Below are positions 21,428 through 37,356 of a DNA stretch of 47,651 bases, in pieces. The DNA lies in assembly GCA_031406045.1 (NCBI GenBank), contig JANOGO010000312.1, forward strand, positions 1-47,651, in the 5' to 3' direction. The translations under genes were made by a program, and so were the position numbers. This stretch comes from Pseudomonadota bacterium. Its GTDB lineage: Bacteria > Pseudomonadota > Gammaproteobacteria > Burkholderiales > JALYOK01. Every line of letters starts with the position of its first letter. The first letter of the stretch is position 1. A model generated the notes under the pieces. The model saw only the letters and a list, made by a program, of their open reading frames with translations. It was not told where the DNA came from and ran no database searches.

Positions 21428-22162
21428 TTATTTAAACATTTCACTGCGATCGAGAAATTGTTGCCATAATCGTAACCACGTGCGCCAATCGTGACCGCCC
21501 GGAATCACCGCCACCTGCGCGGCCGGCAAGCGCGTCGCATACCAGCCAAGCGGCTTGGCAAACCGATCGCTCGCGCCATAACTCAAATGAAATTTCAGCG
21601 GCGATTCCCTTTGTTTAAAATCCCGCAGCCACGCGATGACCAAACGCTGATCGTCCCACGGATCGGAGAGATCGGGGCGCCACGCGTCCAGACCACCGGC
21701 TTTGATCACTTCATCGAATATTTTTTTCTCGCCAAGAAACGGCGCGAGCAACAACATCCCTTCTACTTCGTTTGCGTTCCGCCGCACATACTGCAACGAT
21801 CCCCAACCGCCCAGTGAAATGCCGACAAACCAAATACGGCGATAGCCTTTCGCGCGCGCCGGCACGATCACATCTTGATGCAATCGTTCGACGACGATGT
21901 GTTTTTCGTAATAGCCCCAATGCGCTCGCACTGCGACAAGATCCGCGTCGATATTGCGTTCGCGCACGGCCTGAACGAATCCCTCATTCAGAAACGTCTC
22001 CGGCGCATCGGCGATGCCAGGCAACAATACAATTAAGTTTTGGCTCGGATTCACGCCGCTGGGAAAATAAAGTTGATCGATCGGCGTCGTGACCGGCAAA
22101 GGTTTTGTCGCGCAACCCACAAGCGTGATCAATAAAATGAATAGGTAACGACGATAAATCAT
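21428..22162 (-). CDS. Alpha/beta-hydrolase lipoprotein (esterase)
   Basis: Start trimmed to ATG 22162 (MIYRRYLFILLITLVGC, lipobox LVGC), which forms an ATGA overlap with the MMPL gene stop. Nucleophile elbow 'FVGISLGGWG'. Confidence 0.65.
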   Translation of the reverse strand: MIYRRYLFILLITLVGCATKPLPVTTPIDQLYFPSGVNPSQNLIVLLPGIADAPETFLNEGFVQAVRERNIDADLVAVRAHWGYYEKHIVVERLHQDVIVPARAKGYRRIWFVGISLGGWGSLQYVRRNANEVEGMLLLAPFLGEKKIFDEVIKAGGLDAWRPDLSDPWDDQRLVIAWLRDFKQRESPLKFHLSYGASDRFAKPLGWYATRLPAAQVAVIPGGHDWRTWLRLWQQFLDRSEMFK

Positions 22163-24531
22163 ATTGTCGAAACCGAGCGGTCGGGCGTTAATACCGCAGC
22201 AAAAATCAAGCTCAGCACCGCGCCGCACGCAACGGTCGCGCCGATCGCCGCGAGCACCGGCGTTTGGCACAGGCCAAGCAAGCCGAATCCGATGATCGTG
22301 GAAATGTTGCATAACACCAGTGAGGCCAGCGTCCGCTCCGGCGCGGCCCGCGCGAAATTTTCGTTATCGAAAAACAACGAATAATTCGAACCGACGCCGA
22401 TCACCAACAGCAAACCGACGAGGTGAAAAATACTCAGCGCATGCCCGGCGATCAAGGTCAGCGCCGTCGTCACAATCACCGCTGCTACGAGCGGCGCAAG
22501 CACTCGATAAGTCCGCGCAACACTGCGCAAACTCACCAGCAGCAGCGCGGTAATTGCCAGGGCGCCGAGCAACGCGTTGATCAGCGCTTGGTGACGATAA
22601 CGGCTGAACAATTGGTCTGATTCTGTTTTCAGATTAATCAGTGAAACGCTGCTGTCGTTCAATGCGGAAATCGCTTGGCGCAAACGCGCTTCGTCTTTCA
22701 AGCCACGAATCGGCATTAGCCCTACGGTGGCGCCGCGCTTGGTCACGAGCAAACCGTCGACTTTGAGCTGGAACGCGGTGCCGGCCAAGTTTTCGCGCGT
22801 GAGTAACGGCGCAGATTTAGTTTTTGCAACATCATTCAAGAACGGTTGAAACAACCCATTTTGAAACGGCATGCCTTGCACAGCCGCATCCAGATTGCCT
22901 CGCAGCACCGATGCCTCGGGGAGCGAAGCGCGGCGCGCCTCCTGGCTTGCCTTGCTTGGTAGATAAAGTGATGGCGCATCGAAACCGCTCATCACGCTCT
23001 GTTCGATCAGCTGTCGTAATACGCGCGACAGTTCCTCGGATTTTTGTAACGCCGCTTCTTCATCTTTACCTTTGACCGTGAGCAACACGCCGACTTCCGG
23101 CGCGCCGATATCGCCGCGCAACGACTCGTCGAGTTTTTTGTCGGCGATCGGCATCGGGCTCAAGCTGCCGAGATCATCGTTCCACAAACGGTCGCGATGA
23201 GAAAAAACAATCGCAACACCGAGCGCGGCAAGTGCCCAGACGAGCATTTTCAACTTGGGAGCAAACGCCGCCAAGCTCAGCAACCGCTGCCGTAAACCCC
23301 AACCGATAGGGGCGCTGAAGCCCGCTGGCATAAAATGCGGCAGAACCCAACGGGTAACCAACAACGCTGTGACAATGCCAGCGATGGAAAACAAACCTAA
23401 CTGCCCTAGTCCCGGAAAACCGGAAAAAAACATCGCGCTGAATCCCGCCACGGAAGTCAGCACGCCGAGGCGCAGCGTGGGCCAAATTTGGTTCAGCGAT
23501 TCACTCGCTTTGCGTTCACGCGTTTGTTGCGTGAAAAGATAAATCGCATAATCGACCGCTTCGCCGATCAGGGTCACGCCGAAGCCGAGCGTGATGCCGT
23601 GCACCGACCCGTAGGCCACGCTGACGGCGCTGATGCCCGCCAAGACACCGGTGCCGACGGGCAACAAACCGAGCAGCAGAATTCGCGGCGAGCGATAAAA
23701 CCACAGGATCAACACGGCGACCAAAACGGTGGCGATGGTGGAGTTTTTTGTTGCGTCGGAACGGATCGCTTCGCGCGTGTTAATCGCAAACACACCGGGG
23801 CCAATGGCGAGCAACTTTAATTGTTTATCGCCGGCAATTTTTCCGAAACGCTCACGCAACTCTTTTTGAATCACCTCTTGCGCGTCGAGATCGAACCCCG
23901 GCGCCTTGGTTTGCACGACTAGTAACGCTCGTTTGCCGTCGCGCGAAAACCACACACCGTCGCGCTGCGCCGGGCGGGTTTCACCTTCGAATTGCTCGAT
24001 CAGATGAATGAATTCGCCGCTCGGATCCTCCGGCAAAATTCGCTTCACCAACATGCCGAGCGGTGAGCCAAGTAGATCGAGATTGTTCTCAAGAGACGCG
24101 CGTAATCCATCGGTGGAAAATCGTTGCGGCGTGACAGCATCGCTGAGCAAATATCGATTCTTCAACAAATAATCGCGCTCGGGACCCATGCGCGTTTCAT
24201 CGCCGTTTTGCACGTAAGCCAAACTGGGCATCGCGATCAACTGTTCGAGAAATGTTTTACTCGCTGCGGCGCGCTGCGCCTCGTCACCGCCTTCGATAGC
24301 CAATAACAAAATGCGCGAGACGACGCCGTCTTGCAATTGATCGACCAAAATCTGCTGCGCTTCGCTCGGCTTGCTCGGCAGAAACGCACTGATGTCGCCA
24401 GTGATCGTCGTGTTATGAATGATCCACGCGCACGCGAATACTACCAACAACCAAATGATGGCGGCGCGCAACGCAGCGGATTTCAAAAGGCACTCGCGCC
24501 GGCAGGCAATAGGGACGGGCTGGCCAGGCAA
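22159..24531 (-). CDS. MMPL/RND-superfamily exporter (aryl-polyene cluster type)
   Basis: 790 aa with two bundles of ~6 TM helices separated by large soluble loops. Located where the MMPL exporter sits in aryl-polyene/xanthomonadin clusters. Confidence 0.8.
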   Translation of the reverse strand: MPGQPVPIACRRECLLKSAALRAAIIWLLVVFACAWIIHNTTITGDISAFLPSKPSEAQQILVDQLQDGVVSRILLLAIEGGDEAQRAAASKTFLEQLIAMPSLAYVQNGDETRMGPERDYLLKNRYLLSDAVTPQRFSTDGLRASLENNLDLLGSPLGMLVKRILPEDPSGEFIHLIEQFEGETRPAQRDGVWFSRDGKRALLVVQTKAPGFDLDAQEVIQKELRERFGKIAGDKQLKLLAIGPGVFAINTREAIRSDATKNSTIATVLVAVLILWFYRSPRILLLGLLPVGTGVLAGISAVSVAYGSVHGITLGFGVTLIGEAVDYAIYLFTQQTRERKASESLNQIWPTLRLGVLTSVAGFSAMFFSGFPGLGQLGLFSIAGIVTALLVTRWVLPHFMPAGFSAPIGWGLRQRLLSLAAFAPKLKMLVWALAALGVAIVFSHRDRLWNDDLGSLSPMPIADKKLDESLRGDIGAPEVGVLLTVKGKDEEAALQKSEELSRVLRQLIEQSVMSGFDAPSLYLPSKASQEARRASLPEASVLRGNLDAAVQGMPFQNGLFQPFLNDVAKTKSAPLLTRENLAGTAFQLKVDGLLVTKRGATVGLMPIRGLKDEARLRQAISALNDSSVSLINLKTESDQLFSRYRHQALINALLGALAITALLLVSLRSVARTYRVLAPLVAAVIVTTALTLIAGHALSIFHLVGLLLVIGVGSNYSLFFDNENFARAAPERTLASLVLCNISTIIGFGLLGLCQTPVLAAIGATVACGAVLSLIFAAVLTPDRSVSTI

Positions 24532-24538
24532 GGCATGG

Positions 24539-25165
24539 CTAAGAGGTAGTATCGATAAGGGTCCTAGCGATGCCTGTTGTTTCAGGAGCAGCGCTGCTGA
24601 TGGCTTCTTCGGTCACCGTCATCTCCGAATGATCACCATCGGCCTCGGTAATTTCGATCACATTCATGCGATCTTTACTGCCGCGAATGACGATCGATTG
24701 AATCAATGCCGTCATTTTTTTCTCGGTCGGTTGTAATTGCAATTGCCATGCTTGGCGCGAGCCCTCGAGCTTTACTTTGTAGAATTGCCGCAGCGCCGAC
24801 AGATCGCCCTTGAGCGTGCCGCGCATGCTTTCGACGAATGCCCACAACACCGGATAATCTTGAATTTGCAGTGAACGCTTGCGGCCGCGCATCTCGATCG
24901 TCAACGTATCTTGATCGACCACCATGCTTTCCGGCTTGGGCGCGAGCGTGAGTTTTTCCAATCGATGCGGCGCGGTATAGATTAAACGGCCCGACGATTC
25001 CAGCGGCGCATTAAGCAGCTTCAAATATTTTTTCTCGACGAATGTGCCTTTCGCTTGCTTGACGCGGCCGAGTTCGATCATCAATTCCGATAGGCCCCAC
25101 GCGGAATCTGCCGCGTGAGCAGGCAGCGACAGCGCAAGCAGCAACAACAACAAATATTTAAGCAT
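24539..25165 (-). CDS. LolA-like outer-membrane lipoprotein carrier protein
   Basis: The probable start MLKYLLLLLLALSLPAHA (ATG 25165) overlaps the upstream gene by 8 nt. ~208 aa, secreted, LolA-like size and pattern. Canonical partner of the MMPL gene in these clusters. Confidence 0.6.
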   Translation of the reverse strand: MLKYLLLLLLALSLPAHAADSAWGLSELMIELGRVKQAKGTFVEKKYLKLLNAPLESSGRLIYTAPHRLEKLTLAPKPESMVVDQDTLTIEMRGRKRSLQIQDYPVLWAFVESMRGTLKGDLSALRQFYKVKLEGSRQAWQLQLQPTEKKMTALIQSIVIRGSKDRMNVIEITEADGDHSEMTVTEEAISSAAPETTGIARTLIDTTS

Positions 25166-26066
25166 CGGTTTTGTTTTCGCCATTCCAAAAATCATAAAAA
25201 TTAAACCAGTTGTAGGGCGCTAATCGGCAATAATGTTCGAGGCGTTCGACATAACGCCGCTGCCACGATTGAATAACGCGCTCGCGATTGATACGGTCGA
25301 CGGCGCCACCCTCAACGAGTTGCTCGAAGTATAAATCATAGCGATTGCCGCCTTGATACAAACCGACCATCATAATTACCGGGCATTTCAGCATCGCGGC
25401 CAAGCGAAATGGCGCGTCGGGAAATTCGGCATCCTGGCCAAAAAAATTAACCTTCACTTGGCCGGTCTCGCTGATCGCACGATCGCCGAGCATGCCGACC
25501 AATTCGCCCGCATCCAAATGCTCGCCGATTTTCAACATCGAATCGAGCTTACCCAATCCGATAATATTCATTTTGAAATTGGGATTAACTGCATGCAATA
25601 CGGCATTGAGCTTGCGCGCAATATCTTCAAACATCAACATGCGCACCGTCACACCGCGGCGTTTCTCGCCGATCGCCCGTAGCATTTCGAAGCTGCCGGC
25701 GTGGGCACCGAGCAACAAGGCACCGCGCCCGTTATCGACTAAATTGAGCAATGGTTCGTGGCCAAAACTTCGAATGTCGAATAGATCGAAACGATCACTC
25801 AGCAAAAACACTCGATCGAGCGCAACTGTGGCGAAGGTCAAGTAGTGTCGATAAACATCGCGCAATGTCGCCGGCCGGCCTAACGCCCTCGCGAGATATT
25901 GCTTCGATCCATCGCGCGCCTTGACGGAAAACAAAATGAAATAGAGGCAGATCGGATATAGCAGCCATTGCCCGACGCGCCGCCCCAGAACGCTCGTGAT
26001 CCACACCAGCGTTCGCAGCGCAAAAATATTGCTGCGCTCGGCTTGCGCGAGCCATTGCGGATTCAT
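25158..26066 (-). CDS. Lysophospholipid/lipid A (LpxL-HtrB-like) acyltransferase
   Basis: 302 aa. N-terminal TM segment, 'GALLLGAHAGSFEMLR' (HX4-type motif region). ATGA overlap with the upstream dehydratase gene. Confidence 0.65.
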   Translation of the reverse strand: MNPQWLAQAERSNIFALRTLVWITSVLGRRVGQWLLYPICLYFILFSVKARDGSKQYLARALGRPATLRDVYRHYLTFATVALDRVFLLSDRFDLFDIRSFGHEPLLNLVDNGRGALLLGAHAGSFEMLRAIGEKRRGVTVRMLMFEDIARKLNAVLHAVNPNFKMNIIGLGKLDSMLKIGEHLDAGELVGMLGDRAISETGQVKVNFFGQDAEFPDAPFRLAAMLKCPVIMMVGLYQGGNRYDLYFEQLVEGGAVDRINRERVIQSWQRRYVERLEHYCRLAPYNWFNFYDFWNGENKTDA

Positions 26067-26380
26067 GAATTCACTCGCGCGACGGAATATTCGAAATTAC
26101 CGGACAACACCAAAGTTGCCAAGACGCTGCATTGGAATTTTACTTGTGTCGGCGTGACGGTTTCAAACTGAATGGTGACGGTATTGCCGGGTCGCGTTGG
26201 ACTCAAAAACTTTGCCACTTTGATGGTGATTTTTTCCAGCGGCGCGACAATTATTTTTTCCCAAGCACGTATCACTTCACTGAGCAGCAATGCGCCTGGG
26301 ACGATTGGATTTCCGGGAAAATGGCCCGCGGCCGAGGGGTGATCCCGCGGGATTACAATGTCGACTTGAGTCATTGGCAA
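26063..26380 (-). CDS. Hotdog-fold 3-hydroxyacyl-ACP dehydratase (FabA/FabZ-like)
   Basis: 105 aa. 'HPSAAGHFPGNPIVPGALLLSEVI' is the FabZ-type catalytic His motif. Confidence 0.7.
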   Translation of the reverse strand: MPMTQVDIVIPRDHPSAAGHFPGNPIVPGALLLSEVIRAWEKIIVAPLEKITIKVAKFLSPTRPGNTVTIQFETVTPTQVKFQCSVLATLVLSGNFEYSVARVNS

Positions 26381-26405
26381 AACGAGCGCAGCGTCGCGGT
26401 AAAAT

Positions 26406-27734
26406 TTAACCGCGCAATGTTAGCACGAGGGCAGCGATCGCTTCGCGCGGCAACTTGCCGGTGCTGTTGCGCGGCAATGCATCGACGAAATGAATCGGCC
26501 TCGGCAAAAATGCCGCGTCGATGCGCGTGCGCAGCGCCGTGATAATTTGCGCGGACGTTAAGCCCGGCGCGACCACCAGCGCGGTTAAACGCGTGATGTT
26601 GTGATCTTGTTCGTCCGGCATGAAGAACACGCCGTCGGTGACGCCCATAATCGCATTGAGATGAAAGTTTAGATTTGCCAGCGAAGTACGTTTTCCCGCG
26701 ATGTTGATGACGTCCGCGGCGCGGCCGTGCAACAGAAAATGTTCATGGTCGATCACATCGATGACATCGAGTAGCTTGGCTTCCACTTCGACCGAACCAC
26801 CGTGGGTGAACACCTCGTCGCCGCGCGCATAAACGCGGATGTCGCGATAGGTTTTCCAAGTTGGATTGACGACGGTACGCCGTGTCGCGACTTGTCCCGC
26901 CTCGGTGCAGCCGTAAACCTCGTACAACGGCACAGACAGTTTTGTTTCGGCCAACTGCGCCAAATCCAACGGCAGCGGCGCGGTGGCGCTAACCAGGCAC
27001 GCGAGTTGCGGCACGTGCTCTTCGTCACTGAGCAATGCGCGCAAATGAAACGGCGTCGTCACCAGCACGCGCGCGCCGGAAATCTGCGATAGCGCGGCGC
27101 GAATATCAGCCGGATAAAACGGATGGCCACCGAAAAACGAAATGCCGGTTTGCAATGCCAAAATCAAACTCGATTCCAGGCCATACATATGTTGCGGCGG
27201 GACAGTGGCGACCAACGTCGTTTCAGAGCCCGGTGATAATGCAAATCGCTCCGCTTGCGCGATGGCGCCACGCGCAACGCCGCCCCAGGTTTTCACATGG
27301 GCAGTCGGGCGGCCGGTGGAACCCGACGTAAATACGTACGCGGCGATTTGCTGTGCGGGAATTTTCGGAACGACAAATGCGCCGGAAATCGACGGCGCTA
27401 GCTCGGGAAAATCAAAGCGCTCAAGCACAATTTCGGTGAGCGGACTATCGGCGAGCGCATACAACCCAGGATGATCTTCAAGCAACGACGCAACAAACGC
27501 CGGCGTGTAGTTGGGTGGCAACAAACTGATTTGGCCGCGAACGAGCGCTGCACAAAGGCCGACCGCGAAGCGATAACGATCGCTGCATAAGTTGATGACG
27601 TAGCGCCGCTCGGGAAGCTGCGCGGCGAGGGATTGCACATCGCCGATAAACTGCACTGCGGAGATCGCGGCCCGCTTGTGGAAGGCGACCGGCTGCTGCG
27701 CGCTCTGATGTTGAATTAACGGAATTGAAATCAC
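26406..27734 (-). CDS. AMP-dependent synthetase/ligase (aryl-acid:ACP ligase candidate)
   Basis: 'YVFTSGSTGRPTAHVKTW' (A3 core), 'YGCTEAG' and 'GKLPR'. The ORF-track start at 27785 lies inside REP copy d, so I trimmed it to the GTG at 27734. The start is uncertain. Confidence 0.75.
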   Translation of the reverse strand: MISIPLIQHQSAQQPVAFHKRAAISAVQFIGDVQSLAAQLPERRYVINLCSDRYRFAVGLCAALVRGQISLLPPNYTPAFVASLLEDHPGLYALADSPLTEIVLERFDFPELAPSISGAFVVPKIPAQQIAAYVFTSGSTGRPTAHVKTWGGVARGAIAQAERFALSPGSETTLVATVPPQHMYGLESSLILALQTGISFFGGHPFYPADIRAALSQISGARVLVTTPFHLRALLSDEEHVPQLACLVSATAPLPLDLAQLAETKLSVPLYEVYGCTEAGQVATRRTVVNPTWKTYRDIRVYARGDEVFTHGGSVEVEAKLLDVIDVIDHEHFLLHGRAADVINIAGKRTSLANLNFHLNAIMGVTDGVFFMPDEQDHNITRLTALVVAPGLTSAQIITALRTRIDAAFLPRPIHFVDALPRNSTGKLPREAIAALVLTLRG

Positions 27735-27768
27735 ATTAAAATTGCGGGCGCGTGTTCGAATAGGCGCC

Positions 27769-27853
27769 AACCCCTCACCCTGCACCGTCTCCCCATAGGG
27801 GAGAGGGGATTCGGCTCCCTCTCCCGCTTGGGGGTGAGGGTTGGGGTGAGGGC
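27769..27853. repeat. GGGTGAGGG-type REP element, copy d
   Basis: 'cccctcaccctgcaccg tctccccataggggagagg ggattcgg ctccctctcccgcttgggggtgagggttggggtgaggg'. Inserted between two genes of the minus-strand aryl-polyene operon. Confidence 0.65.
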
Positions 27854-27896
27854 CGGCACATATTTCACAAAGATCGTCGATCCAATTTGCAAAAGC

Positions 27897-28550
27897 CTAA
27901 CGCCGCTGACTTTTTTCATCCGTATGCTCAGCCATCGCTTGCATGCCCTTGAAAATCGACACGTGCGGAAAATTCGGAATGGTCTTGATGCGGTAAAGAT
28001 ACTCACCGACGAACAGCAATACCGCCAGGGGAATGCCGAGCACGTTAGCGAAAAACGACCAAACCGTTAGCGGCGCGAAAAAATAAAGCAGCAACGAGAT
28101 AGTGATAGTCGCCGCAAAATAAAACGTCCAAACCCACGTAACTTTAACCGTATATTCAGCGATTTCCTTTGGAAGCGAGCCATGTACGCGGCGCGCCAAA
28201 CTGGAAATTAACGGCTCCCGACCTTGGATCAAGCTGCTGCCAAACAAAATCATCAACAATGAATTGAACAACAAATGCTCGACAAAATACGACGCGGAAA
28301 AATCGATTAACTTCGCCGACCATGCCAAGCCCAACAACAGCGCGCCGACTGCGAGCATCAGCGCAATTCGCATCGGATGTTTTGTTTTGCGCATCAACCA
28401 CAGCACATAGGCGCCAATCGGCAACAGAGCAAGGCCGATTCCCGACGGGCCGGTTGCATTTTTCACGATGAAGAAATGCAACAAAAATGGATAAGCCACC
28501 ACGGCGGCCACGGTAACAACCTTAACCAGCCAGCCGGCGCTAACCGTCAT
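27897..28550 (-). CDS. Polytopic membrane protein of unknown function (cluster-associated)
   Basis: 217 aa with ~6 predicted TM helices and no recognisable motif. Only 5 nt separate it from the upstream ACP gene. Confidence 0.5.
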   Translation of the reverse strand: MTVSAGWLVKVVTVAAVVAYPFLLHFFIVKNATGPSGIGLALLPIGAYVLWLMRKTKHPMRIALMLAVGALLLGLAWSAKLIDFSASYFVEHLLFNSLLMILFGSSLIQGREPLISSLARRVHGSLPKEIAEYTVKVTWVWTFYFAATITISLLLYFFAPLTVWSFFANVLGIPLAVLLFVGEYLYRIKTIPNFPHVSIFKGMQAMAEHTDEKSQRR

Positions 28551-28555
28551 GCGGA

Positions 28556-28831
28556 TTACTTGGTTCGATTCGCTTCGATATGTTGATTGAGGCTGCGCAG
28601 CGAGGTGAAGATGCGGACATTGTCGCTATCGTCGGACTTGATTTGAAATCCATAGGTCTTGGAAACCGCTAACGCTAATTCGAGGATGTCGATCGAATCA
28701 AGCCCAAGCCCTTCTTTATAGAGCAGCGCCTCCGGCTCGATTTGCTCAGGCGCGACTTCTAAATTCAGCGTCGATACGATCAATGATGCCAGCGTTTGCT
28801 CTTGGCTGGTCAATGCTTGAATGTTGCTCAT
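28556..28831 (-). CDS. Acyl carrier protein (aryl-polyene ACP)
   Basis: 91 aa. 'GLGLDSIDILELALAVSKTYG' is a canonical attachment Ser. First gene of the minus-strand operon, divergent from the KS gene. Confidence 0.8.
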   Translation of the reverse strand: MSNIQALTSQEQTLASLIVSTLNLEVAPEQIEPEALLYKEGLGLDSIDILELALAVSKTYGFQIKSDDSDNVRIFTSLRSLNQHIEANRTK

Positions 28832-28919
28832 AATTCCGGCTAAAGTGCCTTGCAGTCGCGAGAATTGATATTATACGGGTAAGGTTTCAATCGCCAAAAC
28901 TCATGCAAGCATAAACCGT

Positions 28920-30113
28920 ATGCAACCACTGGTCATTCAATGTTATACCGCCGCTAACTGCGTCGGCATTGGCCGCAGCGCGTTGTACGACGCATTGCGC
29001 GAGCGTCGCTCGGGGCTGACCCATTGCGCATTTGAAACCGTCGACCTCGACACCTACGTCGGCCAAGTACCGGACGCCGAGCTCGCACCGCTGCGCGAGG
29101 ATCTCAACGATTTCGAATGCCGCAATAATCGCCTGGCGCAGTTGGGCATGCGGCAAGATGGCTTCGAGCAAGCGGTGGCGCGGCTGTGCGAGCGATATGG
29201 CGCTTCGCGCATCGGCGTGTTTATAGGCACCAGCACGGCGGGCATTTTGCAAACCGAGCTCGCTTATCGGCGGCGCGACCCCAACAGCGGCGCATTGCCC
29301 GCTGACTTTCGCTACGAACATACGCACAACACATTTTCGCCGGCGAGTTTTGTACAGCGTTATTTAGGTCTGACGGGTCCGGCCGTCGCGGTGTCATCGG
29401 CGTGCTCGTCGAGCGCAAAAGTATTCGGCAACGCGCAGCGCATGATCGCGGCGGGAGTATGCGATGCGGCAATTGTCGGCGGCGTCGATAGCTTGTGCTT
29501 GACCACGCTGTACGGTTTCAACTCACTGCAATTGGTGTCGAAAAATCCGTGCAAACCATTCGACGCCGAGCGCGACGGCATTTCCATCGGCGAGGCGGCA
29601 GGATTTGCATTGTTGGAAAAAGCCGATGGGCCAATCGGCAATGATCGGCTAGCGTTGCTCGGCGTCGGTGAAAGTTGCGATGCTTATCACATGTCGACGC
29701 CGCATCCGGAAGGGTTAGGCGCGCGCATGGCAATGCAGGGCGCGCTGACGCAATCGGGACTTGGCGTTGCGGACATCGACTACATCAACTTGCACGGTAC
29801 CGCGACGCGCAGCAATGATGCGACCGAAGCGTTGGCGGTGAACATGATTTTCGGCAATAGCGTTGCCGCCAGTTCCACCAAAGGTTGGACCGGCCACACG
29901 CTCGGCGCCGCGGGAATTATTGAAGCGATTATTTCGTTCATCGCCATCGAAGAAAATTTTATGCCCGGCAGTTTGCATACGAACACGATCGATCCCGGTG
30001 TGTCGATTCGATATTTGAAAGATAACCGGCAAGGGCAAGTTAAACGCGTGCTGAGCAACTCATTCGGCTTCGGCGGCACGAACTGCAGCCTTGTGGTTGG
30101 GCGCGTTTCATGA
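28920..30113 (+). CDS. Beta-ketoacyl-ACP synthase (KS, FabB/F-like)
   Basis: 397 aa. Active-site Cys in 'AVSSACSSSAKVF', with 'NLHGTATRSND' and 'GHTLGAAG' completing the Cys-His-His triad. Confidence 0.9.
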   Translation: MQPLVIQCYTAANCVGIGRSALYDALRERRSGLTHCAFETVDLDTYVGQVPDAELAPLREDLNDFECRNNRLAQLGMRQDGFEQAVARLCERYGASRIGVFIGTSTAGILQTELAYRRRDPNSGALPADFRYEHTHNTFSPASFVQRYLGLTGPAVAVSSACSSSAKVFGNAQRMIAAGVCDAAIVGGVDSLCLTTLYGFNSLQLVSKNPCKPFDAERDGISIGEAAGFALLEKADGPIGNDRLALLGVGESCDAYHMSTPHPEGLGARMAMQGALTQSGLGVADIDYINLHGTATRSNDATEALAVNMIFGNSVAASSTKGWTGHTLGAAGIIEAIISFIAIEENFMPGSLHTNTIDPGVSIRYLKDNRQGQVKRVLSNSFGFGGTNCSLVVGRVS

Positions 30114-30123
30114 ACCCTATGCA

Positions 30124-30220
30124 GGTCATCGCGAGCGAACGCGAAGCAATCTCGCGCGCAGCGCGCTTCGGCGGCTTCAAATCGAGATCGCCACGTCGCC
30201 CTTCAGGCGCCTCGCGATGA
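30124..30220. repeat. Palindromic intergenic repeat, GCGAAGCAATCTCG family, copy 2
   Basis: 'gtcatcgcgag' (30124-30134) pairs with 'ctcgcgatgac' (30210-30220), and the core 'cgaagcaatctcg' is at 30141-30153. Lies in the 337-nt KS-CLF spacer. Confidence 0.6.
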
Positions 30221-30450
30221 CAAGATTGGACGGCGTTCCCGGTCGCAATCCGCCATGCCATTTAGTGACCACGTTCCATGAACCGGATTTGACGGATGAT
30301 TGTTTTGAGGACGGCTTGCCCCTCATAGCCCAAGGCTACGCTACCGCACTTGGTCGCGCTCCACCGCAGACATTTAAGCGTCTATTTTCCAGTGTTATCC
30401 GATCTATGGTACTTGAGCAGTATCGGCAGCGCCGAATAAGGTAGTTCACA

Positions 30451-31248
30451 ATGATGCGTGTTTTTGTCGATGGCATTGGGCTGATCGCGCCGGGATTGAA
30501 CGGCTGGGCGGCAAGTGCGCCGATTCTCGCGGGGAGCACAAGCTACGCCGCCGAACCACTAACGATACCTGTGCTGGAAATTTTGCCGCCGGCCGAGCGG
30601 CGGCGCACACCGATGGTGGTGAAACTAGCGATCGCTGCCGGTTGCGAAGCGCTCGCGAATGCCAATCAACCCGCTGCCGAAACGGCATCGGTGTTCACAT
30701 CGTCTGGCGGCGATGGTGACGTGATTCATCAAATTTGCGATACGCTCACTCAGCCCGAGCGCGAAGTTTCGCCGACGCGTTTCCATAACTCGGTGCACAA
30801 CGCGCCCGCCGGCTATTGGGGCATCGCCACCGGCGCGCGCGAGCCATCGACGAGCTTGTGCGCATTCGACGCGAGCTTCGCCGCCGGGCTCATCGAAGCG
30901 GCGACGCAAGTCAGTGTCGACGGCCGCAAAGTATTGCTGGTCGCCTACGATGCGCCCTACCCTGAACCGATCAACGGCGTGCGTCGCATCGGCGCTGGGT
31001 TCGGCATCGCGATGTTGTTGTCGCCGCAGCAAACGGATCGAAGTTTGAGCGCGTTAGATATTTCGCTCACATCGAATGCGGCGCTCGTGACAAAATTAGC
31101 GCAACCGGAATTGGAAACTTTTCGCGCGAATGTGCCCGCTGCTCGCGCGCTGCCGCTTCTGACAAGCATCGCCAAGCGCGAATCCACAACCGTGATCACC
31201 GCTTATCTCGGCGAAAATTCTTTGCAAACGGTCGTCACACCATGCTAA
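30451..31248 (+). CDS. KS-like chain-length-factor subunit (beta-ketoacyl synthase N-terminal-like)
   Basis: 265 aa, truncated KS-like fold ('RRRTPMVVKLAIAAGCEAL', 'FHNSVHNAPAGYWGIA'). Lacks the His-His motifs. Position and size match the CLF partner in aryl-polyene clusters. Confidence 0.7.
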   Translation: MMRVFVDGIGLIAPGLNGWAASAPILAGSTSYAAEPLTIPVLEILPPAERRRTPMVVKLAIAAGCEALANANQPAAETASVFTSSGGDGDVIHQICDTLTQPEREVSPTRFHNSVHNAPAGYWGIATGAREPSTSLCAFDASFAAGLIEAATQVSVDGRKVLLVAYDAPYPEPINGVRRIGAGFGIAMLLSPQQTDRSLSALDISLTSNAALVTKLAQPELETFRANVPAARALPLLTSIAKRESTTVITAYLGENSLQTVVTPC

Positions 31249-31685
31249 TCGACAAAGCGGAAATTGAGCGGCGTATTCCCCACGCGGGGTCAATGAATTT
31301 ACTCGACGGCGTGATCGAATGGAATGCGGAAACGATCCGCTGCCGCGCGACGAGCCATCGCGATCCGGCCAATCCGCTACGTGTCGCCGGTAAACTTTAC
31401 GCCATCAGCGGAGTGGAATATGCCTCGCAAGCGATGGCGATCCACGGCGCATTGTCCGGCACGGTTGCCGGACGACCGCGCGCGGGCTACCTCGCCAGCT
31501 TGCGCGATGTGGTTTGCCATCGCGCGACGCTCGATGGCACGCACGACGAACTCACGGTCTATGCAGAATGTTTGATGGGCGATGACACCCGCATGATGTA
31601 TGCATTCACGGTCAGCGATGGCGCTGAAGAAATCATCACCGGCCGCGCCACCGTAGTGTTAGACATCAGCAATCTCATGACATGA
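31242..31685 (+). CDS. Hotdog-fold dehydratase (ApeI-like)
   Basis: 147 aa. 'IPHAGSMNLLDGVIEW' and 'GVEYASQAMAIHGAL'. Overlaps the CLF gene by 7 nt and the fabG-like gene by 4 nt. Confidence 0.65.
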   Translation: MLIDKAEIERRIPHAGSMNLLDGVIEWNAETIRCRATSHRDPANPLRVAGKLYAISGVEYASQAMAIHGALSGTVAGRPRAGYLASLRDVVCHRATLDGTHDELTVYAECLMGDDTRMMYAFTVSDGAEEIITGRATVVLDISNLMT

Positions 31686-32401
31686 AACGCGCGCTCATCA
31701 CAGGCGGCAGCGGCGCTCTGGGCGCGGCGATTGCGAAAACGCTAGCGGCGCACGGCATGGAAGTTTTGGTTCATGCCAATAGCAATATCGCCGGCGCCCA
31801 GGCCGTCGTCGCCGATATCAAAGCGCATGGCGGCGCTGCGAGCGCAATCGTGTTTGACGTGACCAACGCCGAACAATGCAAGCAAGTGTTGGAGCCGATT
31901 CTGGCCGAGGGCGCGATCCAAATCGTCGTCAACAATGCCGGCATTCACGATGACGCGGTCATGCCCGCTATGTCTGCGAAGCAATGGTCGCGCGTCATCG
32001 ACGTGTCACTGAACGGATTTTTCAACGTCACGCAACCACTGCTGATGCCGATGATCCGTACACGATGGGGCCGCATCATCAGCGTCTCGTCCATCGCCGC
32101 GCAAGTCGGCAATCACGGCCAAACTAACTACGCTGCCGCGAAAGCAGGCTTGCACGGCGCATCAAAATCCCTCGCGCTCGAACTCGCCAGCCGCGGCATC
32201 ACCGTCAACGTCGTCGCGCCGGGCATCATCGCATCCCCAATGGCAGACAACGTGTTCAGTAAAGACCTGATCGATCAAATGGTGCCGATGAAACGCGCCG
32301 GCCGGCCCGATGAAGTCGCAGCGTTGGTGAATTTTTTAGCGTCGGACCAAGCGGGCTATATTTCCGGGCAAGTGATTTCGATTAACGGCGGGATGGCATA
32401 G
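31682..32401 (+). CDS. fabG: 3-oxoacyl-ACP reductase (SDR)
   Basis: 239 aa. 'ITGGSGALGAAI', 'NNAGI' and 'YAAAKAG' (YxxxK), ending 'GQVISINGGM'. Confidence 0.9.
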   Translation: MKRALITGGSGALGAAIAKTLAAHGMEVLVHANSNIAGAQAVVADIKAHGGAASAIVFDVTNAEQCKQVLEPILAEGAIQIVVNNAGIHDDAVMPAMSAKQWSRVIDVSLNGFFNVTQPLLMPMIRTRWGRIISVSSIAAQVGNHGQTNYAAAKAGLHGASKSLALELASRGITVNVVAPGIIASPMADNVFSKDLIDQMVPMKRAGRPDEVAALVNFLASDQAGYISGQVISINGGMA

Positions 32402-32470: not shown

Positions 32471-32481
32471 CGATGCCTAAA

Positions 32482-33258
32482 TGTAGGCTGGGGTGAGGCA
32501 CGAACCCCAACACAACTGCCCACGCGACCCTGACACGCTATGCAATACCGTCGAGCAAATATCCCAGGCGCAACCTACTTCTTCACCGTAAATCTCGCGG
32601 ATAGGAAAGAATCTCTTCTTGTCGAAAACATCACCGGGTTAAAGGAATCAATCCGTACCGTTAACGCGGCCCACCCGTTCGAGATCGTAGCGTTCGTTGT
32701 GTTACCCGATCATCTGCACGCATTTTGGACATTGCCTCCAAACGACTCGGACTTCGCAACCCGTTGGGCGCTGATCAAAGCCGGCTTTTCTCGCCGTTTA
32801 CCAAGGAACGAGCGCATCTCAAAAAGCCGCCAATCCAAAGGCGAGCGCGGCATTTGGCAACGCAGGTTTTGGGAGCACGTGATCCGCGACGACAATGATT
32901 TGGCGCGCCATATCGATTACATTCATTACAATCCGGTGAAACACGGCTACGTCGACCGCGCTTCCGATTGGCCGCATTCAAGCATTCATCGCTTTATCTG
33001 TGAGGGTGTTGTCCCCTCGGATTGGGGAAGCAACGGAAATTCAATCGAAGGTGATTGGGGTGAACGCGGTTGATGTTGGGGTTCGTGCCTCACCCCAGCC
33101 TACATCTCCTTAATTTGGTAGGTTGGCGGTGAGGTACGAACCCCAACAAACCACATTTTTATCAACCACGGATATCGATTTCGGCGGCAACTTGTTTTTT
33201 GAACAGAGTTACATCCGCGGTCGTCGATGTTGGGGTTCGCTCCTCACCCGAACCTACC
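32482..33258. mobile_element. RAYT gene with flanking REP/REPIN sequences
   Basis: REP1 'tgtaggctggggtgaggcacgaaccccaaca' is at 32482-32513. Its inverted copy REP2 (33075-33104) starts one base after the RAYT stop. REP3 (33118-33148, direct) forms a REPIN hairpin with REP2. REP4 (33226-33258) is inverted. Confidence 0.85.
32540..33073 (+). CDS. REP-associated tyrosine transposase (RAYT, IS200/IS605 Y1 family)
   Basis: 177 aa. HUH motif 'VLPDHLHAFW' and catalytic Tyr motif 'DYIHYNPVKHGY', with 'GIWQRRFWEH'. Flanked by inverted REPs. Confidence 0.88.
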   Translation: MQYRRANIPGATYFFTVNLADRKESLLVENITGLKESIRTVNAAHPFEIVAFVVLPDHLHAFWTLPPNDSDFATRWALIKAGFSRRLPRNERISKSRQSKGERGIWQRRFWEHVIRDDNDLARHIDYIHYNPVKHGYVDRASDWPHSSIHRFICEGVVPSDWGSNGNSIEGDWGERG

Positions 33259-33327
33259 CGCTGACGCGCGCGATACGTCATCGCCCTGAGAATGTTAAAA
33301 TATTTCGAGATTAAAATTTGATGCGCT

Positions 33328-34941
33328 ATGACATCCACTAAACAACACGACATCGTTATTCTAGGCGGCGGCCTCGCGGGTTTGACGCTTTCGCTGCAAC
33401 TGAAACAACGCATGCCCGATCTTGACATTGCGGTTATCGAGCGGCGTCGCCATCCGGTTCCGGAAGCGGCGCACAAGGTCGGCGAATCGTCGGTGGAAAT
33501 CGGCGCGCATTATTTTGCGAATGTGCTTGGGCTTAAAGAATACCTGCAAAAACATCAGCTCAAAAAATTTGGTTTTCGATTTTTCTTTTCCGATGGCGAG
33601 CGCGACATCACGCGCGTGACGGAGTTGGGCGCGAGTACGTTTTTGTCGACGCCGGCTTATCAAATCGATCGCGGCTTATTTGAGAACGCGCTTGCCGGTT
33701 TTGCGCTGGAACGTGGTATTCGATTTATCGATGGCGCGATGGTGCGCAAATTTGCGTTGAGCGACGGTGATTCGCCACACAACTTAAGCTACGAAAAAGA
33801 CGGCGTCACCCAGGAGATCCAAGCGCGCTGGTTGCTGGACGCATCGGGCCGCGCCGGCATGATTAAGCGCCATCTCGATCTCGCCGAATTGAACGATCAC
33901 GATGCCAACGCGATTTGGTTTCGCATTTCCGAGCGCATCGACATCAACGATTGGTCGGATGATCGCGCTTGGCTGAATCGCTGCAACCCGCCCAATCGCT
34001 GGCTCTCGACCAATCATTTGATGGGCGAAGGCTATTGGGCTTGGTTGATTCCCCTGGCTTCGGGGTCCCATTCCGTCGGCATTGTCGCCGATGCGAAATT
34101 GCATCCGATCGACACGATGAACACGTTTGACAAGGCGATGACCTGGTTTGAAAAGCATCAGCCGCGACTGTTCGATGCGCTAGATAGTAAACGAGAAAAG
34201 TTACAAGATTTTGCTTTCTTCAAGCGTTTTTCCTACGGCTGCAAACAAGTCTTTTCCGGCAGGCAACGTTGGGCGCTCACCGGTGAAGCAGGCGTTTTTC
34301 TTGATCCGTTTTATTCGCCCGGCAGCGATTTCATCGCGATCGGTAATACCTTTATCACCGAGCTTGTCGCGCAAGACCGCGCCGGTGGGCCGGTAGAACT
34401 GTACGCCAACATTTATCAGCAAATTTATTTTTCGCTGTATCAAAACATGATGCCGCTTTACACCGGGCAGTACAAATTATTCGGCGATGCGGAAGTAATG
34501 CCGGTGAAAGTGATTTGGGATTACACCTATTACTGGGGTGTGATGTGTCAGTTGTTTTTCCAGAATCGGCTGACCGATGTCGTGGCGATGGGCCGTATGC
34601 AAAAGACCTTGGCGAATGTGCAGCAACTGAATATCGCGATGCAAAACTTTCTGCTCGAATGGCATGGCGTGAGCAAGCAACACAATCCGCCGCAAATGCT
34701 CGATCAATCGCGGCTGGATTGGTTTGCGGAAATGAATCGTGGTTTGACCGACTCGCTTGATGATGCGGGATTTAAGCAGCGCATGGATGAGATGCTCACA
34801 CAGCTTGATGTGCTGGCGAAAGAAATTGTCGTTCGCGCGACGATGGCTTATACAACACTGGACGGCAGCAAGGTGTTAGGGTTTACCGATCGCGAGGCGA
34901 GCGAACGCGCGCCGTCAATGTTGTTTGCGCAAGCGGCTTGA
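33328..34941 (+). CDS. Flavin-dependent halogenase
   Basis: 537 aa. FAD fold 'DIVILGGGLAGL', 'AAHKVGESS' (Lys/Glu region), the diagnostic 'GYWAWLIPL' (WxWxIP), and 'FLDPFYSPGSDF' (Fx.Px.Sx.G). Confidence 0.8.
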   Translation: MTSTKQHDIVILGGGLAGLTLSLQLKQRMPDLDIAVIERRRHPVPEAAHKVGESSVEIGAHYFANVLGLKEYLQKHQLKKFGFRFFFSDGERDITRVTELGASTFLSTPAYQIDRGLFENALAGFALERGIRFIDGAMVRKFALSDGDSPHNLSYEKDGVTQEIQARWLLDASGRAGMIKRHLDLAELNDHDANAIWFRISERIDINDWSDDRAWLNRCNPPNRWLSTNHLMGEGYWAWLIPLASGSHSVGIVADAKLHPIDTMNTFDKAMTWFEKHQPRLFDALDSKREKLQDFAFFKRFSYGCKQVFSGRQRWALTGEAGVFLDPFYSPGSDFIAIGNTFITELVAQDRAGGPVELYANIYQQIYFSLYQNMMPLYTGQYKLFGDAEVMPVKVIWDYTYYWGVMCQLFFQNRLTDVVAMGRMQKTLANVQQLNIAMQNFLLEWHGVSKQHNPPQMLDQSRLDWFAEMNRGLTDSLDDAGFKQRMDEMLTQLDVLAKEIVVRATMAYTTLDGSKVLGFTDREASERAPSMLFAQAA

Positions 34942-35697
34942 CGCTGTTCTTCGCAGCCAAAGCAGCCACGGCAACCGCACGATAAATCCGCAAAACAAAC
35001 GCGTGTGCATCCAGGTTAGCAGCGCATTGTCGCGCACGTAGTTGAAATGCGACACGCCGCCCTCGTCGGCATTAAAATATTTCACCGGCGCAGCGAGGTT
35101 AATCGGCGGAACGCCGCGCCAGACAAGGCGCACAGCGGCTTCAACATCGAAATCGAAGCGCCGCATCCACCGATTCGCCTGCATAATTTCGAGCAGCGGT
35201 TTGATCGGATACACGCGAAATCCAAACAGCGAATCGCCGATACCTTGCCAACAGGTTTCTAAATTCGCCCACCAGTTTGAAACCTTGCGGCCGCGCACGC
35301 GCAGGCTCGGCGCGCTGGTATCGAACTGCGGCAAACCGAGTATCAATGCGTTCGAATTAGCCATCGATTTCGCCATGAATTCGGCAATTTTTTCCGCCGG
35401 GTGCTGCCCGTCGGCATCCATCGTCAACGCGTGGGTGAAGTATTCTTTCGCGGCGATTTCTAACCCATGCAACACCGCCGCGCCCTTACCGCGATTCTCC
35501 GGCAATATGAAAACACGAAGGCCGGTATCTTCAGCAGCGATCGCCTGGAGTTGCTCCGCCGTGCCGTCGTTGCTGCCGTCGACAACCACCCAAACCGGCG
35601 CCCAATGGCTGCGCGCGTTGCGAACCGTTTCTAAGACTTTCGCGCCGGTGTTATAGCTCGGAATGATGACGACGTGCGTCGTCGAAGCAGCCATCAT
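34915..35697 (-). CDS. Family 2 glycosyltransferase
   Basis: 260 aa. 'VVIIPSYNTGAKV', 'VVVDGSNDGT' and 'LTMDADGQH' (DxD). 4-nt overlap with the upstream acyltransferase gene. Confidence 0.85.
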   Translation of the reverse strand: MMAASTTHVVIIPSYNTGAKVLETVRNARSHWAPVWVVVDGSNDGTAEQLQAIAAEDTGLRVFILPENRGKGAAVLHGLEIAAKEYFTHALTMDADGQHPAEKIAEFMAKSMANSNALILGLPQFDTSAPSLRVRGRKVSNWWANLETCWQGIGDSLFGFRVYPIKPLLEIMQANRWMRRFDFDVEAAVRLVWRGVPPINLAAPVKYFNADEGGVSHFNYVRDNALLTWMHTRLFCGFIVRLPWLLWLRRTASSRLRKQH

Positions 35698-36491
35698 TTT
35701 ACCGCTGGTAGTTCACTGCGAAAGTAGTCTTCGAGTTCGGCGACGAAGGTTTGCACGTCGCCATTTACCTCAAAGCGCTTGCCCAGACGCACCTGAAAAG
35801 TCACCGGCATGATGGGCTTTTTCGAAAATGGCCAACCTTTGCTCAGGCAGGGATTGTCGGTTTCGATAAATACGGTTTGTATCGGCACGCGCGCGCGTTT
35901 TGCAATCAACGCGAAGCCGCCCTTAAAATCGTTGATCGGTTTTTTCCGCGTGCGCGTGCCTTCGGGAAACACCAGCAATTGTTGGCCGCGCTGCAATTCG
36001 TCGGCGGCAAGACGAATCATATTGACCGGCGTGTCGTTGCGAATATAACCCGCCAGCCGCGAGCCGCCGCCGAGAAAAATATTGTCCCAAATCTCCGCCT
36101 TCATAATACAAACCACGCGCGGCAAGCGCGAAATGACTAACACCGCATCGAGCAGACCAGGATGGTTTGCCGCGATGATCAGTCCCGGCTCGTCGCGCAA
36201 CGTGTCGAGCGCGCCTAAGTCCGCTTTGAAGGTGCCGAGCTTGGTGACGAGCCATAAATAAATGCGGAACATTCGCGCCATCATCGCCCGGCCGAATCGT
36301 GCACCGGCTGCGCGCGGCAACAGCGGATAGAGAATCGCACTAGCCAGCGTAAACAAAATTCCGCCGCCGCCAAACAACACGAAGGCGCCATAAATTTGAA
36401 AATACTCGACCGGCAACATGAGCCAGCGTTTAATAATTCGAAGCGGACCGGGGACCATGCTTTTGGTCTGGTTAGGGACGCTGTTTTCCAT
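35694..36491 (-). CDS. 1-acyl-sn-glycerol-3-phosphate (PlsC-like) acyltransferase
   Basis: 'IIAANHPGLLDAVLV' (HX4D) and 'VFPEGTRT'. Start trimmed to ATG 36491 to remove a 68-nt overlap with the MipA gene. 36458 or 36581 are also possible. Confidence 0.78.
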   Translation of the reverse strand: MENSVPNQTKSMVPGPLRIIKRWLMLPVEYFQIYGAFVLFGGGGILFTLASAILYPLLPRAAGARFGRAMMARMFRIYLWLVTKLGTFKADLGALDTLRDEPGLIIAANHPGLLDAVLVISRLPRVVCIMKAEIWDNIFLGGGSRLAGYIRNDTPVNMIRLAADELQRGQQLLVFPEGTRTRKKPINDFKGGFALIAKRARVPIQTVFIETDNPCLSKGWPFSKKPIMPVTFQVRLGKRFEVNGDVQTFVAELEDYFRSELPAVK

Positions 36492-36513
36492 GGTCGATCC
36501 GCTTACGGCTTCC

Positions 36514-37356
36514 CTAGTCTTTCGACTCGACCAACTGTTTGGATTCCTTAAATATCCAAGAAATCGCAACGCCGGCGGCAAAACTATTTTTGGTTTTTAC
36601 CAGCGGGCTATCTTCGTAGGCGGCACCGCTCAGATTGGTTAACGAGGCAAATCCGCCGACCCAAAATTTCGGATAACGCTTGCTGACAGCCGCGAGAAAT
36701 TGCATGCCGGCATAACCGCCTTTGGCGTCATAGGCGGAACGCTGCGGTGTCGCAAACGCGCTGTCGACACCATAAAAATATTGATGATTCTTGCGTGTGG
36801 CGAACATCGGCCCAGTGGCCAATCCGATATTCCAGCCGGGCCCGAGAAAATTGTTGCGTATATCAAGATTCAGCCGCGGCTCAAACACCCAGCCGGTTTG
36901 GCGCACGTAGGTCAGGTCGGTCGCGAATACCGTTCGCAGCGGCAAACGCAAATCGAGTTCGGTATGTTGGCCTTTGCTTTTGTGCAAATGGATATTGAAG
37001 GTTGGACCAAATTCGAGCGTTGGGTCCAGATCGTTCATGCCTCGCCGCGCTTCGTTCTCCGAGCTTTTTACCGGCACCGAACCGCTAAAGCTCAGGTCAA
37101 GCTCAGCCCAATCTCGCTTGAAAAACAAACCGCGAATTTTTTGCCGATCGACTTTGAGAAAATCGCCGCGGTAAACAAAGTAAGGAATGGGCAGCGCAAA
37201 GAATATTGTTTCATCGGAACCGCGGTAGTGCGGAAACTGAATGAGGGATACGCCCGCGCCGGCTTCCCACAACGGCAGTTGATCGGCGGCGGCGGGCACT
37301 GCGAAGGTCGCGCAAAGCGGAAGTATCCACGCGCTTGATGTTAGTTTTTCGAGCAT
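36514..37356 (-). CDS. MipA/OmpV-family outer-membrane protein
   Basis: 280 aa. Signal peptide 'ILPLCATFAVPAAA', alternating beta-strand pattern, and a C-terminal aromatic region. MipA-like by recognition only. Confidence 0.55.
   Translation of the reverse strand: MLEKLTSSAWILPLCATFAVPAAADQLPLWEAGAGVSLIQFPHYRGSDETIFFALPIPYFVYRGDFLKVDRQKIRGLFFKRDWAELDLSFSGSVPVKSSENEARRGMNDLDPTLEFGPTFNIHLHKSKGQHTELDLRLPLRTVFATDLTYVRQTGWVFEPRLNLDIRNNFLGPGWNIGLATGPMFATRKNHQYFYGVDSAFATPQRSAYDAKGGYAGMQFLAAVSKRYPKFWVGGFASLTNLSGAAYEDSPLVKTKNSFAAGVAISWIFKESKQLVESKD

Follow-up and report, generated by a model that had tools for sequence, protein, structure and literature searches.

The window analyzed here, a stretch of 47,651 nucleotides, is the entire contig C260 of a betaproteobacterial metagenome-assembled genome (MAG) of 3.48 Mb in 425 contigs (completeness, 87%; contamination, 2.2%), and the organism is uncultured. 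Between positions 21428 and 37356, over which the GC content is even, the window carries a set of genes resembling the xanthomonadin and arcuflavin clusters for aryl polyene (APE) biosynthesis. An earlier note on this DNA had described the region as a xanthomonadin-like APE cluster with unusual gene content. All the genes listed there were recovered at or very near the claimed positions and in the claimed families by Pfam, NCBIfam, and Protein Data Bank (PDB) searches. The three proposed transcription units also appear sound, since adjacent genes overlap or lie almost end to end except where two insertions intervene. The features are as follows.

21428-22162, minus strand: putative alpha/beta-hydrolase lipoprotein, in the ArcO position directly after the exporter gene (weak Abhydrolase matches)
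22159-24531, minus strand: MMPL/RND-type exporter, equivalent to ArcP and XCC4005 (PF03176 and HpnN-like matches; conserved)
24539-25195, minus strand: LolA-like periplasmic lipid carrier, ArcQ (PF19574, LolA_3)
25158-26066, minus strand: LpxL-like lysophospholipid acyltransferase, ArcR (PF03279; conserved in related loci)
26063-26380, minus strand: small hotdog dehydratase subunit of the ApeI/ArcS type, 105 amino acids (FabZ/MaoC matches)
26406-27785, minus strand: aryl-acid:acyl carrier protein (ACP) AMP-ligase of the XanA2/ArcT type (PF00501 and PF13193)
27897-28550, minus strand: conserved integral membrane protein in the ArcU position (weak DUF3159 match)
28556-28831, minus strand: dedicated ACP of the XanC/ArcV type (NF006617, 126 bits; cut-off, 70)
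28832-28919, no strand assigned: divergent intergenic (promoter) region, searched for sigma-70-like matches
28920-30113, plus strand: ketosynthase (KS) of the APE type, corresponding to ApeO, ArcK, and XCC3998 (NF006618; PDB 7F28_B and 6QSP_A; Cys-His-His)
30114-30450, no strand assigned: 337-nucleotide KS-CLF spacer built of dispersed short repeats (repeat matches on other contigs)
30451-31248, plus strand: half-size chain-length factor (CLF), corresponding to ApeC, ArcJ, and XCC3999 (PF13723, Ketoacyl-synt_2; 265 amino acids)
31242-31685, plus strand: hotdog dehydratase subunit of the ApeP/ArcI type, 147 amino acids (family profile against 6QSR_B)
31682-32401, plus strand: ketoreductase (KR) of the FabG3/XanH/ArcH/ApeQ type (adh_short; FabG models; FlxB, 261 bits)
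32481-33257, plus strand: mobile insertion consisting of a REP-associated tyrosine transposase (RAYT) gene at 32540-33073 with repetitive extragenic palindromes (REPs), between the KR and halogenase genes
33328-34941, plus strand: flavin-dependent halogenase of the type acting on carrier-protein substrates, 537 amino acids (PF04820)
34915-35697, minus strand: GT2 glycosyltransferase, ArcE/XCC4000 (PF00535; 60-79% identity in related loci)
35694-36581, minus strand: PlsC-type acyltransferase, ArcD (PF01553)
36514-37356, minus strand: MipA-family outer-membrane protein, ArcC (PF06629, E 7e-41)

Eighty related loci (L numbers) were fetched with the window KS as the query, and nearly all of them came from uncultured Betaproteobacteria/Burkholderiales. 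Mapping of these loci by tblastn demonstrated that most betaproteobacterial loci carry the same gene set, and synteny with the window extended across the 80 loci. The nearest loci by KS identity were L001, L020, and L024 (90-92%), followed by L002 (77%); their genomes, placed by coordinates, belong to the same genus as that of the window and are 93, 99, 90, and 96% complete, respectively. L002 lies on a 450-kb contig, and its cluster is bordered as in the window by pfkB on one side and dgkA-tpx on the other. The cluster was carried by 6 of the 10 genomes of the window's genus and by 15 of 41 in a wider sample. The cluster is thus an accessory trait with a patchy distribution.

The KS scored 545 bits against NF006618, the APE-type model (cut-off, 407), but only 232 bits against the FabF model of NCBIfam, which it fails (cut-off, 494). 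When all PDB sequences were compared, the best matches of KS were 7F28_B (251 bits) and 6QSP_A (246 bits), which belong to the ApeO-ApeC heterodimers of Acinetobacter baumannii and Xenorhabdus doucetiae, respectively (PMC8358021). The next-best chain reached 177 bits, and FabF chains reached 170 bits or less. The Cys-His-His triad ascribed to this protein is present, with Cys in SACSS and the two His residues in AYHMS and LHGTAT. CLF consists of a single thiolase half, and its only PDB matches were the ApeC chains 7F28_A and 6QSP_B. The product of 31242-31685 had no Pfam match by itself. On the other hand, a family profile built from this protein and ten orthologues matched 6QSR_B (ApeP) over almost its full length (E 1.3e-9), and His14 and Glu59 are invariant in the family. 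The best PDB match of the smaller subunit encoded at 26063-26380 was 6QSR_A (ApeI; E 2e-4).

It could be argued that KS/CLF, the dehydratases, KR, and ACP are ordinary paralogues from fatty acid synthesis without a role in polyene formation, as matches to the FabF, FabZ, and FabG models are significant. These matches are nevertheless below threshold, and the KS result with the two models, the match of the half-size CLF to ApeC only, and the synteny with experimentally validated pigment clusters all contradict this explanation. Furthermore, housekeeping KS paralogues are found elsewhere in the genome, on C45 and C391, and show 36% identity to the cluster KS. This explanation is thus effectively refuted, with a negligible residual probability. 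The grouping of KS and CLF with FabF/FabB, which the earlier note had named as evidence against its own reading, is contradicted by their best matches to the APE pair ApeO/ApeC. Judged from their sequences, the core enzymes are of the APE type and not housekeeping FabF/FabB.

No second KS, CLF, or ACP of the cluster type was found in the window or the genome, and no thioesterase family matched within the cluster in the Pfam scan. The observation in the earlier note of only one ACP is therefore true for this type in both the window and the genome, but it is not unusual: a single ACP is normal for the xanthomonadin/arcuflavin subtype (PMC3949708, PMC3691225). Similarly, the lack of a second KS and of a thioesterase is real but normal for the subtype, ApeR and ApeK being features of the E. 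coli/Xenorhabdus clusters.

The best PDB matches of the halogenase were Bmp2, PltA, CmlS, and CndH, which we take to be halogenases of carrier-protein-bound or small phenolic substrates. The protein carries the motifs GGGLAG, KKFG, YWAWLIPL, and FLDPFYSPGSDF, which fit GxGxxG, WxWxIP, and FxxPxxSxG. Its Lys-Lys in KKFG aligns with FPKKFG of PltA, presumably the site of the catalytic Lys of this halogenase class. The halogenase shows 85% identity to its counterpart in L002. Its identity is 39-45% with the halogenase encoded after KS-CLF in the gammaproteobacterial loci and only 23-26% with the ArcA-type proteins that most betaproteobacterial clusters encode. The gammaproteobacterial order KS-CLF-halogenase resembles XCC3998-4001 of Xanthomonas, which suggests that the window halogenase is an ortholog of XCC4001. 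Between Xanthomonas and Lysobacter, bromination of the pigment goes along with possession of a halogenase gene (PMC3691225). L002 carries an additional ArcA-type flavoprotein gene (WFWFIPL motif) between the MipA gene and dgkA and hence two halogenase-like genes.

The genes for lipid attachment and export follow the same conserved arrangement. The membrane protein gene between those of ACP and the ligase holds a conserved position in related loci. The LolA-like protein scored 76 bits against NF053544 (flexirubin LolA2), which is under the model cut-off. The true start of the hydrolase is most likely M51 at 22162; read from there, the protein begins with a lipobox, LVGC, and it also carries a GISLG elbow. 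The gene after the MMPL gene is conserved in most related loci, and the ratio of nonsynonymous to synonymous substitution rates (dN/dS) against L024 was 0.09. The MipA gene has the same position in the Azoarcus, Dechloromonas, and Sideroxydans clusters. The halogenase, hydrolase, and MipA genes had been regarded as extra genes; comparison of the related loci contradicts this, because they are conserved members of the subtype, as are the GT2 and PlsC genes. The DUF3047 gene, also proposed as a possible member, does not belong to the cluster: it occurs only in the window and one related locus, L024, has a 32% identical paralogue elsewhere in the genome, and is missing in L002, where pfkB stands directly beside the hydrolase gene.

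The longest open reading frame (ORF) adjoining the MipA gene (37341-37829; 162 amino acids) was considered as a XanB2 remnant and rejected as a spurious frame over dgkA, the true gene at this position (37499-37873). The spurious frame still matched L002 at 43% in tblastn, where it overlaps the conserved dgkA in another frame. This case calls for caution with ORF-based gene lists for this genome.

Many relatives carry, after the hydrolase gene, a polysaccharide-deacetylase-like gene and an S-adenosylmethionine (SAM) methyltransferase gene, which match ArcN and ArcM. An adjacent pair of this kind was detected by tblastn in the same genome as the window, at 6557-8090 of C254 (L100). The two products match Polysacc_deac_1 (ArcN) and Methyltransf_23 (ArcM) and show 46-55% (ArcN) and 38-46% (ArcM) identity to the in-cluster genes of L004, L016, L017, L037, L048, and L049. 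The statement that a methyltransferase is lacking thus stands for the window but not for the genome, which has an ArcM homologue with an ArcN-like partner on C254. The pathway genes thus occupy two separate loci, an arrangement also seen in Azoarcus. The C254 pair is flanked by genes for a 399-amino-acid lipoprotein-like protein without a Pfam match (8165-9364) and a GlcD-like FAD-linked oxidase (4962-6356). Both were considered as parts of the cluster and rejected, as no related APE locus contains a homologue of either.

The most conspicuous absence is that of a starter-acid gene. No match to PF21168 or TIGR04444 was found in the genome, and tblastn searches of it with six XanB2 proteins from related clusters were empty. 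As a positive control, the same XanB2 probe matched 26 of 55 related genomes with E values below 1e-16, nearly always within the cluster by the MipA gene; the other 29, about half, are XanB2-less. XanB2 is absent both from the window's own genome and from the four same-genus carriers of the cluster (90-99% complete). Given the completeness of the five same-genus genomes, chance loss of XanB2 from the bins is negligible. When mapped on the KS tree, the absence is clustered, requiring 9 changes compared with about 18 in shuffles, and three well-supported XanB2-less groups were seen. Neither UbiC (PF04345) nor the aromatic ammonia-lyases, phenylalanine and tyrosine ammonia-lyase (PAL/TAL; PF00221), were found in the window's genome, and an Rv2949c-like lyase (PF01947) was found neither there nor in any of the four same-genus genomes tested. 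The lack of a starter gene in the cluster was thus correctly recognized, and the genome-wide search that had been called for revealed neither XanB2 nor PAL/TAL elsewhere.

This gap extends beyond the pigment genes. UbiC was absent from all 14 sampled genomes of the window's family, including the four same-genus genomes that are 90-99% complete, and present in 5 of 9 sampled genomes from other families of the order. Outside the family, UbiC is also missing from several genomes of the order that are 100% complete. UbiA, by contrast, is encoded in the window's genome (C159:17279-18106, L093). Its gene directly follows recG in this genome and in L094, compared with recG-ubiC-ubiA in relatives. A divergent UbiC beside ubiA was sought in vain, as recG abuts ubiA in both genomes. 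Among 56 genomes, 20 had both XanB2 and UbiC, 26 had neither, 6 had only XanB2, and 4 had only UbiC; this co-occurrence is mostly a taxonomic signal from few independent lineages. The hydroxybenzoate-source gap is thus a property of the lineage and not of the cluster.

A replacement starter gene common to XanB2-less clusters was likewise rejected. All-against-all clustering of the ORFs from 56 loci, which was noisy from spurious ORFs at high GC, gave no enriched family beyond genes of single clades. One XanB2-less clade (L021, L023, L029, L044, and L045) differs from the others in gene content: the dehydratase DH2 is absent in 5/5, DH_s is either missing or matched at no more than about 31-33% identity, the LpxL-like gene is a different one (26% identical), and about 3 kb of clade-specific genes are present.

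Since UbiA is present, hydroxybenzoate is needed anyway. Most likely, the starter acid is drawn from the same hydroxybenzoate supply, outside the cluster, that serves ubiquinone synthesis in this family. APE clusters of the E. coli type draw on UbiC for their starter and, to our knowledge, have no dedicated starter enzyme either. It is conceivable, if rather doubtful, that the window's family makes hydroxybenzoate for both ubiquinone and the APE starter by an enzyme unrelated to UbiC, the Rv2949c-like lyases, and FkbO/Hyg5/XanB2. If this is true, the pigment cluster would be a convenient reporter for finding the missing enzyme.

The same gap could instead mean that the polyene is primed with benzoate, aminobenzoate, or a non-aromatic acid; the cluster would then yield a novel APE-like lipid rather than an analogue of xanthomonadin. 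As this explanation would have it, the genome lacks PAL/TAL and the three known enzyme families that lead from chorismate to hydroxybenzoate, and the chorismate enzymes are also absent from the same-genus genomes at 90-99% completeness. The ligase also bears on this question. Among the ligases of XanB2-positive clusters, 107 positions show conservation of 90% or more, and the window ligase retains 101 of them. One of the six changes, R221H, at a position conserved in XanB2-positive clusters, characterizes the ligase of the window's clade and favors another starter; the remaining five are conservative. Because the 101 positions are kept, there is no sign of a substrate switch. Moreover, 4-hydroxybenzoate must be obtained somehow where UbiA is present, E. 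coli-type APE clusters show that a dedicated starter enzyme can be dispensed with, and the retained ArcM-type O-methyltransferase implies a ring hydroxyl. Priming with a different acid is thus improbable.

Two insertions interrupt the plus-strand unit. The RAYT gene scored 200 bits against NF047646 (cut-off, 80) and is bracketed by perfect 32-nucleotide inverted REPs at 32481-32512 and 33074-33105, with two further copies downstream. The REP recurs across the genome (31 matches on 22 contigs), and RAYT had no match in any related locus in the tblastn maps. At the same site, between fabG and the halogenase gene, L002 carries two genes whose products, identified only by eye, are a repeat protein of 189 amino acids and a hydrolase of the HAD-like kind. 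These genes occupy 13324-14593 of L002, and its extra ArcA-type flavoprotein gene occupies 19150-20511. As unrelated genes lie in L002 exactly at the RAYT site, the fabG-halogenase junction is a variable insertion site. The second insertion is the gap between KS and CLF, which measures 337 nucleotides in the window, 3 nucleotides in L002 and L024, and about 150 nucleotides in L001. In the window, at least three short dispersed repeats are pieced together in this gap, and the REP that accompanies RAYT is not related to them. Nine other contigs carry copies, with 88-93% identity, of a spacer element of about 105 nucleotides, frequently at a contig end, so that this element probably fragments the assembly. 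These results indicate that the RAYT/REP unit and the repeat-built spacer are recent selfish-DNA insertions that have not inactivated the cluster. In the divergent intergenic region, the best sigma-70-like match was at 28897-28870 on the minus strand (10/12); the total matches in the promoter/terminator scan do not exceed chance, and support for a divergent promoter is weak.

The mobile DNA within the plus-strand operon, the absence of XanB2 and the ArcA-type gene, and two in-frame stops in accC on the same contig could be taken as signs that the cluster is decaying and the pathway no longer yields a product. However, every ORF of the cluster is full length, and the catalytic motifs are intact. 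The dN/dS values of the cluster genes, where computable, were 0.03-0.23 against the three XanB2-less relatives L001, L024, and L002, although these values are rough because dS is near saturation (about 1 or more). All cluster genes remain under purifying selection, roughly measured as it is, and the XanB2-less state has been maintained over a dS of about 1. In addition, the XanB2-less clades on the KS tree are several and old. Decay of the cluster is accordingly very unlikely.

The accC gene (biotin carboxylase) lies outside the cluster, at 40865-42223 on the minus strand. It contains an in-frame TAA and TGA within about 8 codons, around 41530-41556, in an AT-rich, diverged patch; the remainder of the gene is well conserved. 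It is the sole true accC of the assembly, the other matches being 45-47% identical paralogues on C414, C14, and C385. The double stop may have arisen as an artefact of assembly or consensus calling, or the lesion may be real.

Taken together, the region is very probably an intact, functional cluster of the xanthomonadin/arcuflavin type for an APE lipid. Some points weigh against this interpretation. The tight KS-CLF coupling found in L002 and L024 is lost through the 337-nucleotide spacer, and hairpins of the RAYT/REP unit could reduce the read-through that reaches the halogenase gene. The ArcA-type flavoprotein, the companion of XanB2 in most betaproteobacterial clusters, is missing, and the proposed orthology of the halogenase with XCC4001 derives from synteny in the gammaproteobacterial loci. 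XanB2, UbiC, an Rv2949c-like lyase, and PAL/TAL were all sought in the genome and not found. Finally, the cluster is known only from the genes of an uncultured MAG, and the near-saturated dS blurs the measure of selection.

From the gene identities, orthology, and synteny described above, we infer the following chemical steps and product. By orthology, the AMP-ligase would adenylate a hydroxybenzoate-type acid and load it onto the single ACP. The heterodimer of KS and the half-size CLF would extend this starter iteratively with malonyl units, and the FabG-type KR and the heteromeric pair of hotdog dehydratases would leave a conjugated double bond in place of each beta-keto group. The flavin-dependent halogenase is predicted to halogenate an ACP-bound intermediate, and the ArcM-type methyltransferase from C254 probably O-methylates the ring. 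The LpxL-like and PlsC-like acyltransferases and GT2 may then join the polyene acid to an anchor of the glycolipid or phospholipid type, and the MMPL pump, the LolA-like carrier, the lipoprotein hydrolase, and MipA may carry the product to the outer membrane. The product would be a yellow, membrane-bound APE pigment lipid by analogy with known pigments. The proposal of a halogenated, lipid-anchored APE with a starter from outside the cluster is therefore plausible.

In Gram-negative bacteria, few biosynthetic clusters are as common as those for APEs, and one more betaproteobacterial example adds little. The XanB2-less form, on the other hand, is no oddity: this variant recurs in about half of the related genomes, is clustered phylogenetically, and has been maintained by selection. 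Cluster-mining rules should not demand a chorismatase. The retention of UbiA without any known chorismate-to-hydroxybenzoate enzyme points to a knowledge gap in the ring-precursor supply for ubiquinone and polyenes in these lineages.

Three groups of characterized clusters were compared with that of the window. The ape clusters (apeA-R) of E. coli CFT073, X. doucetiae, and A. baumannii supply the best structural matches, ApeO/ApeC and ApeI/ApeP (6QSP, 6QSR, and 7F28). They share with the window a ligase-primed ACP, acyltransferases, a glycosyltransferase (GT), LolA, MMPL export, and the lack of an in-cluster starter enzyme. Tandem ACPs, a second KS (ApeR), and a thioesterase characterize the E. 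coli/Xenorhabdus/Acinetobacter subtype (PMC8358021). The window differs in having no ApeR, no tandem ACPs, and no ApeK thioesterase, in placing the methyltransferase outside the cluster, and in carrying the halogenase and MipA genes. ApeO-ApeC alone makes a full-length polyene in vitro (PMC8358021). As for the anchor, the APE lipids of Xenorhabdus contain a galactosamine-phosphate-glycerol moiety (bioRxiv 10.1101/2020.12.19.423268).

The xanthomonadin pig/xan cluster of Xanthomonas campestris comprises XCC3998-XCC4015 and includes xanA2, xanB2, xanC, and xanH (PMC6859482). The Lysobacter enzymogenes cluster, ORF1-17, encodes one ACP, a KS with a truncated partner, one KR, and two FabA/Z-like dehydratases (PMC3691225). 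Both resemble the window in their type II polyketide synthase with a KS and truncated partner, one ACP, two FabA/Z-like dehydratases, and a dedicated FabG, as well as in the aryl-acid:ACP ligase, GT2, and exporter. The Xanthomonas cluster also has a halogenase, probably of the same type, judging by gammaproteobacterial synteny. Unlike these clusters, the window has no XanB2, a different gene order, and a MipA gene.

The third comparison is with the arc system of Azoarcus sp. BH72, whose genes lie on two unlinked loci (PMC3949708 Table 1). The first locus contains arcV (ACP), arcU (hypothetical), arcT (AMP-ligase), arcS (dehydratase), arcR (acyltransferase), arcQ (LolA), arcP (exporter), arcO (hypothetical), arcN (deacetylase), and arcM (methyltransferase). 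The second contains arcK (KS), arcJ (N-terminal KS domain), arcI (dehydratase), arcH (reductase), arcE (GT), arcD (acyltransferase), arcC (MipA), arcB (XanB2 chorismatase), and arcA (halogenase-like) (PMC3949708). Disruption of arcK or arcT by insertion leaves the Azoarcus mutants colourless, and related arc-type clusters occur in Dechloromonas aromatica, Variovorax paradoxus, and Sideroxydans lithotrophicus (Schoner et al. 2014, PMC3949708). The window differs from arc in having neither ArcB (XanB2) nor an ArcA-type flavoprotein, with the 537-amino-acid halogenase instead, in joining both blocks head to head in one divergent locus, and in carrying the RAYT/REP unit and the repeat-built spacer. 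On the other hand, the orders arcV-U-T-S-R-Q-P-O, arcK-J-I-H, and arcE-D-C are colinear with those of the window, and both systems have a single ACP, a single KS with CLF, no thioesterase, and a pathway distributed over unlinked loci. This orthology and synteny with the arc loci, together with the APE-type core enzymes, bear out the xanthomonadin-like APE architecture recognized in the earlier note, whereas its claim of unusual gene content is mostly not borne out, as most of the oddities listed there are canonical for the xanthomonadin/arcuflavin subtype.

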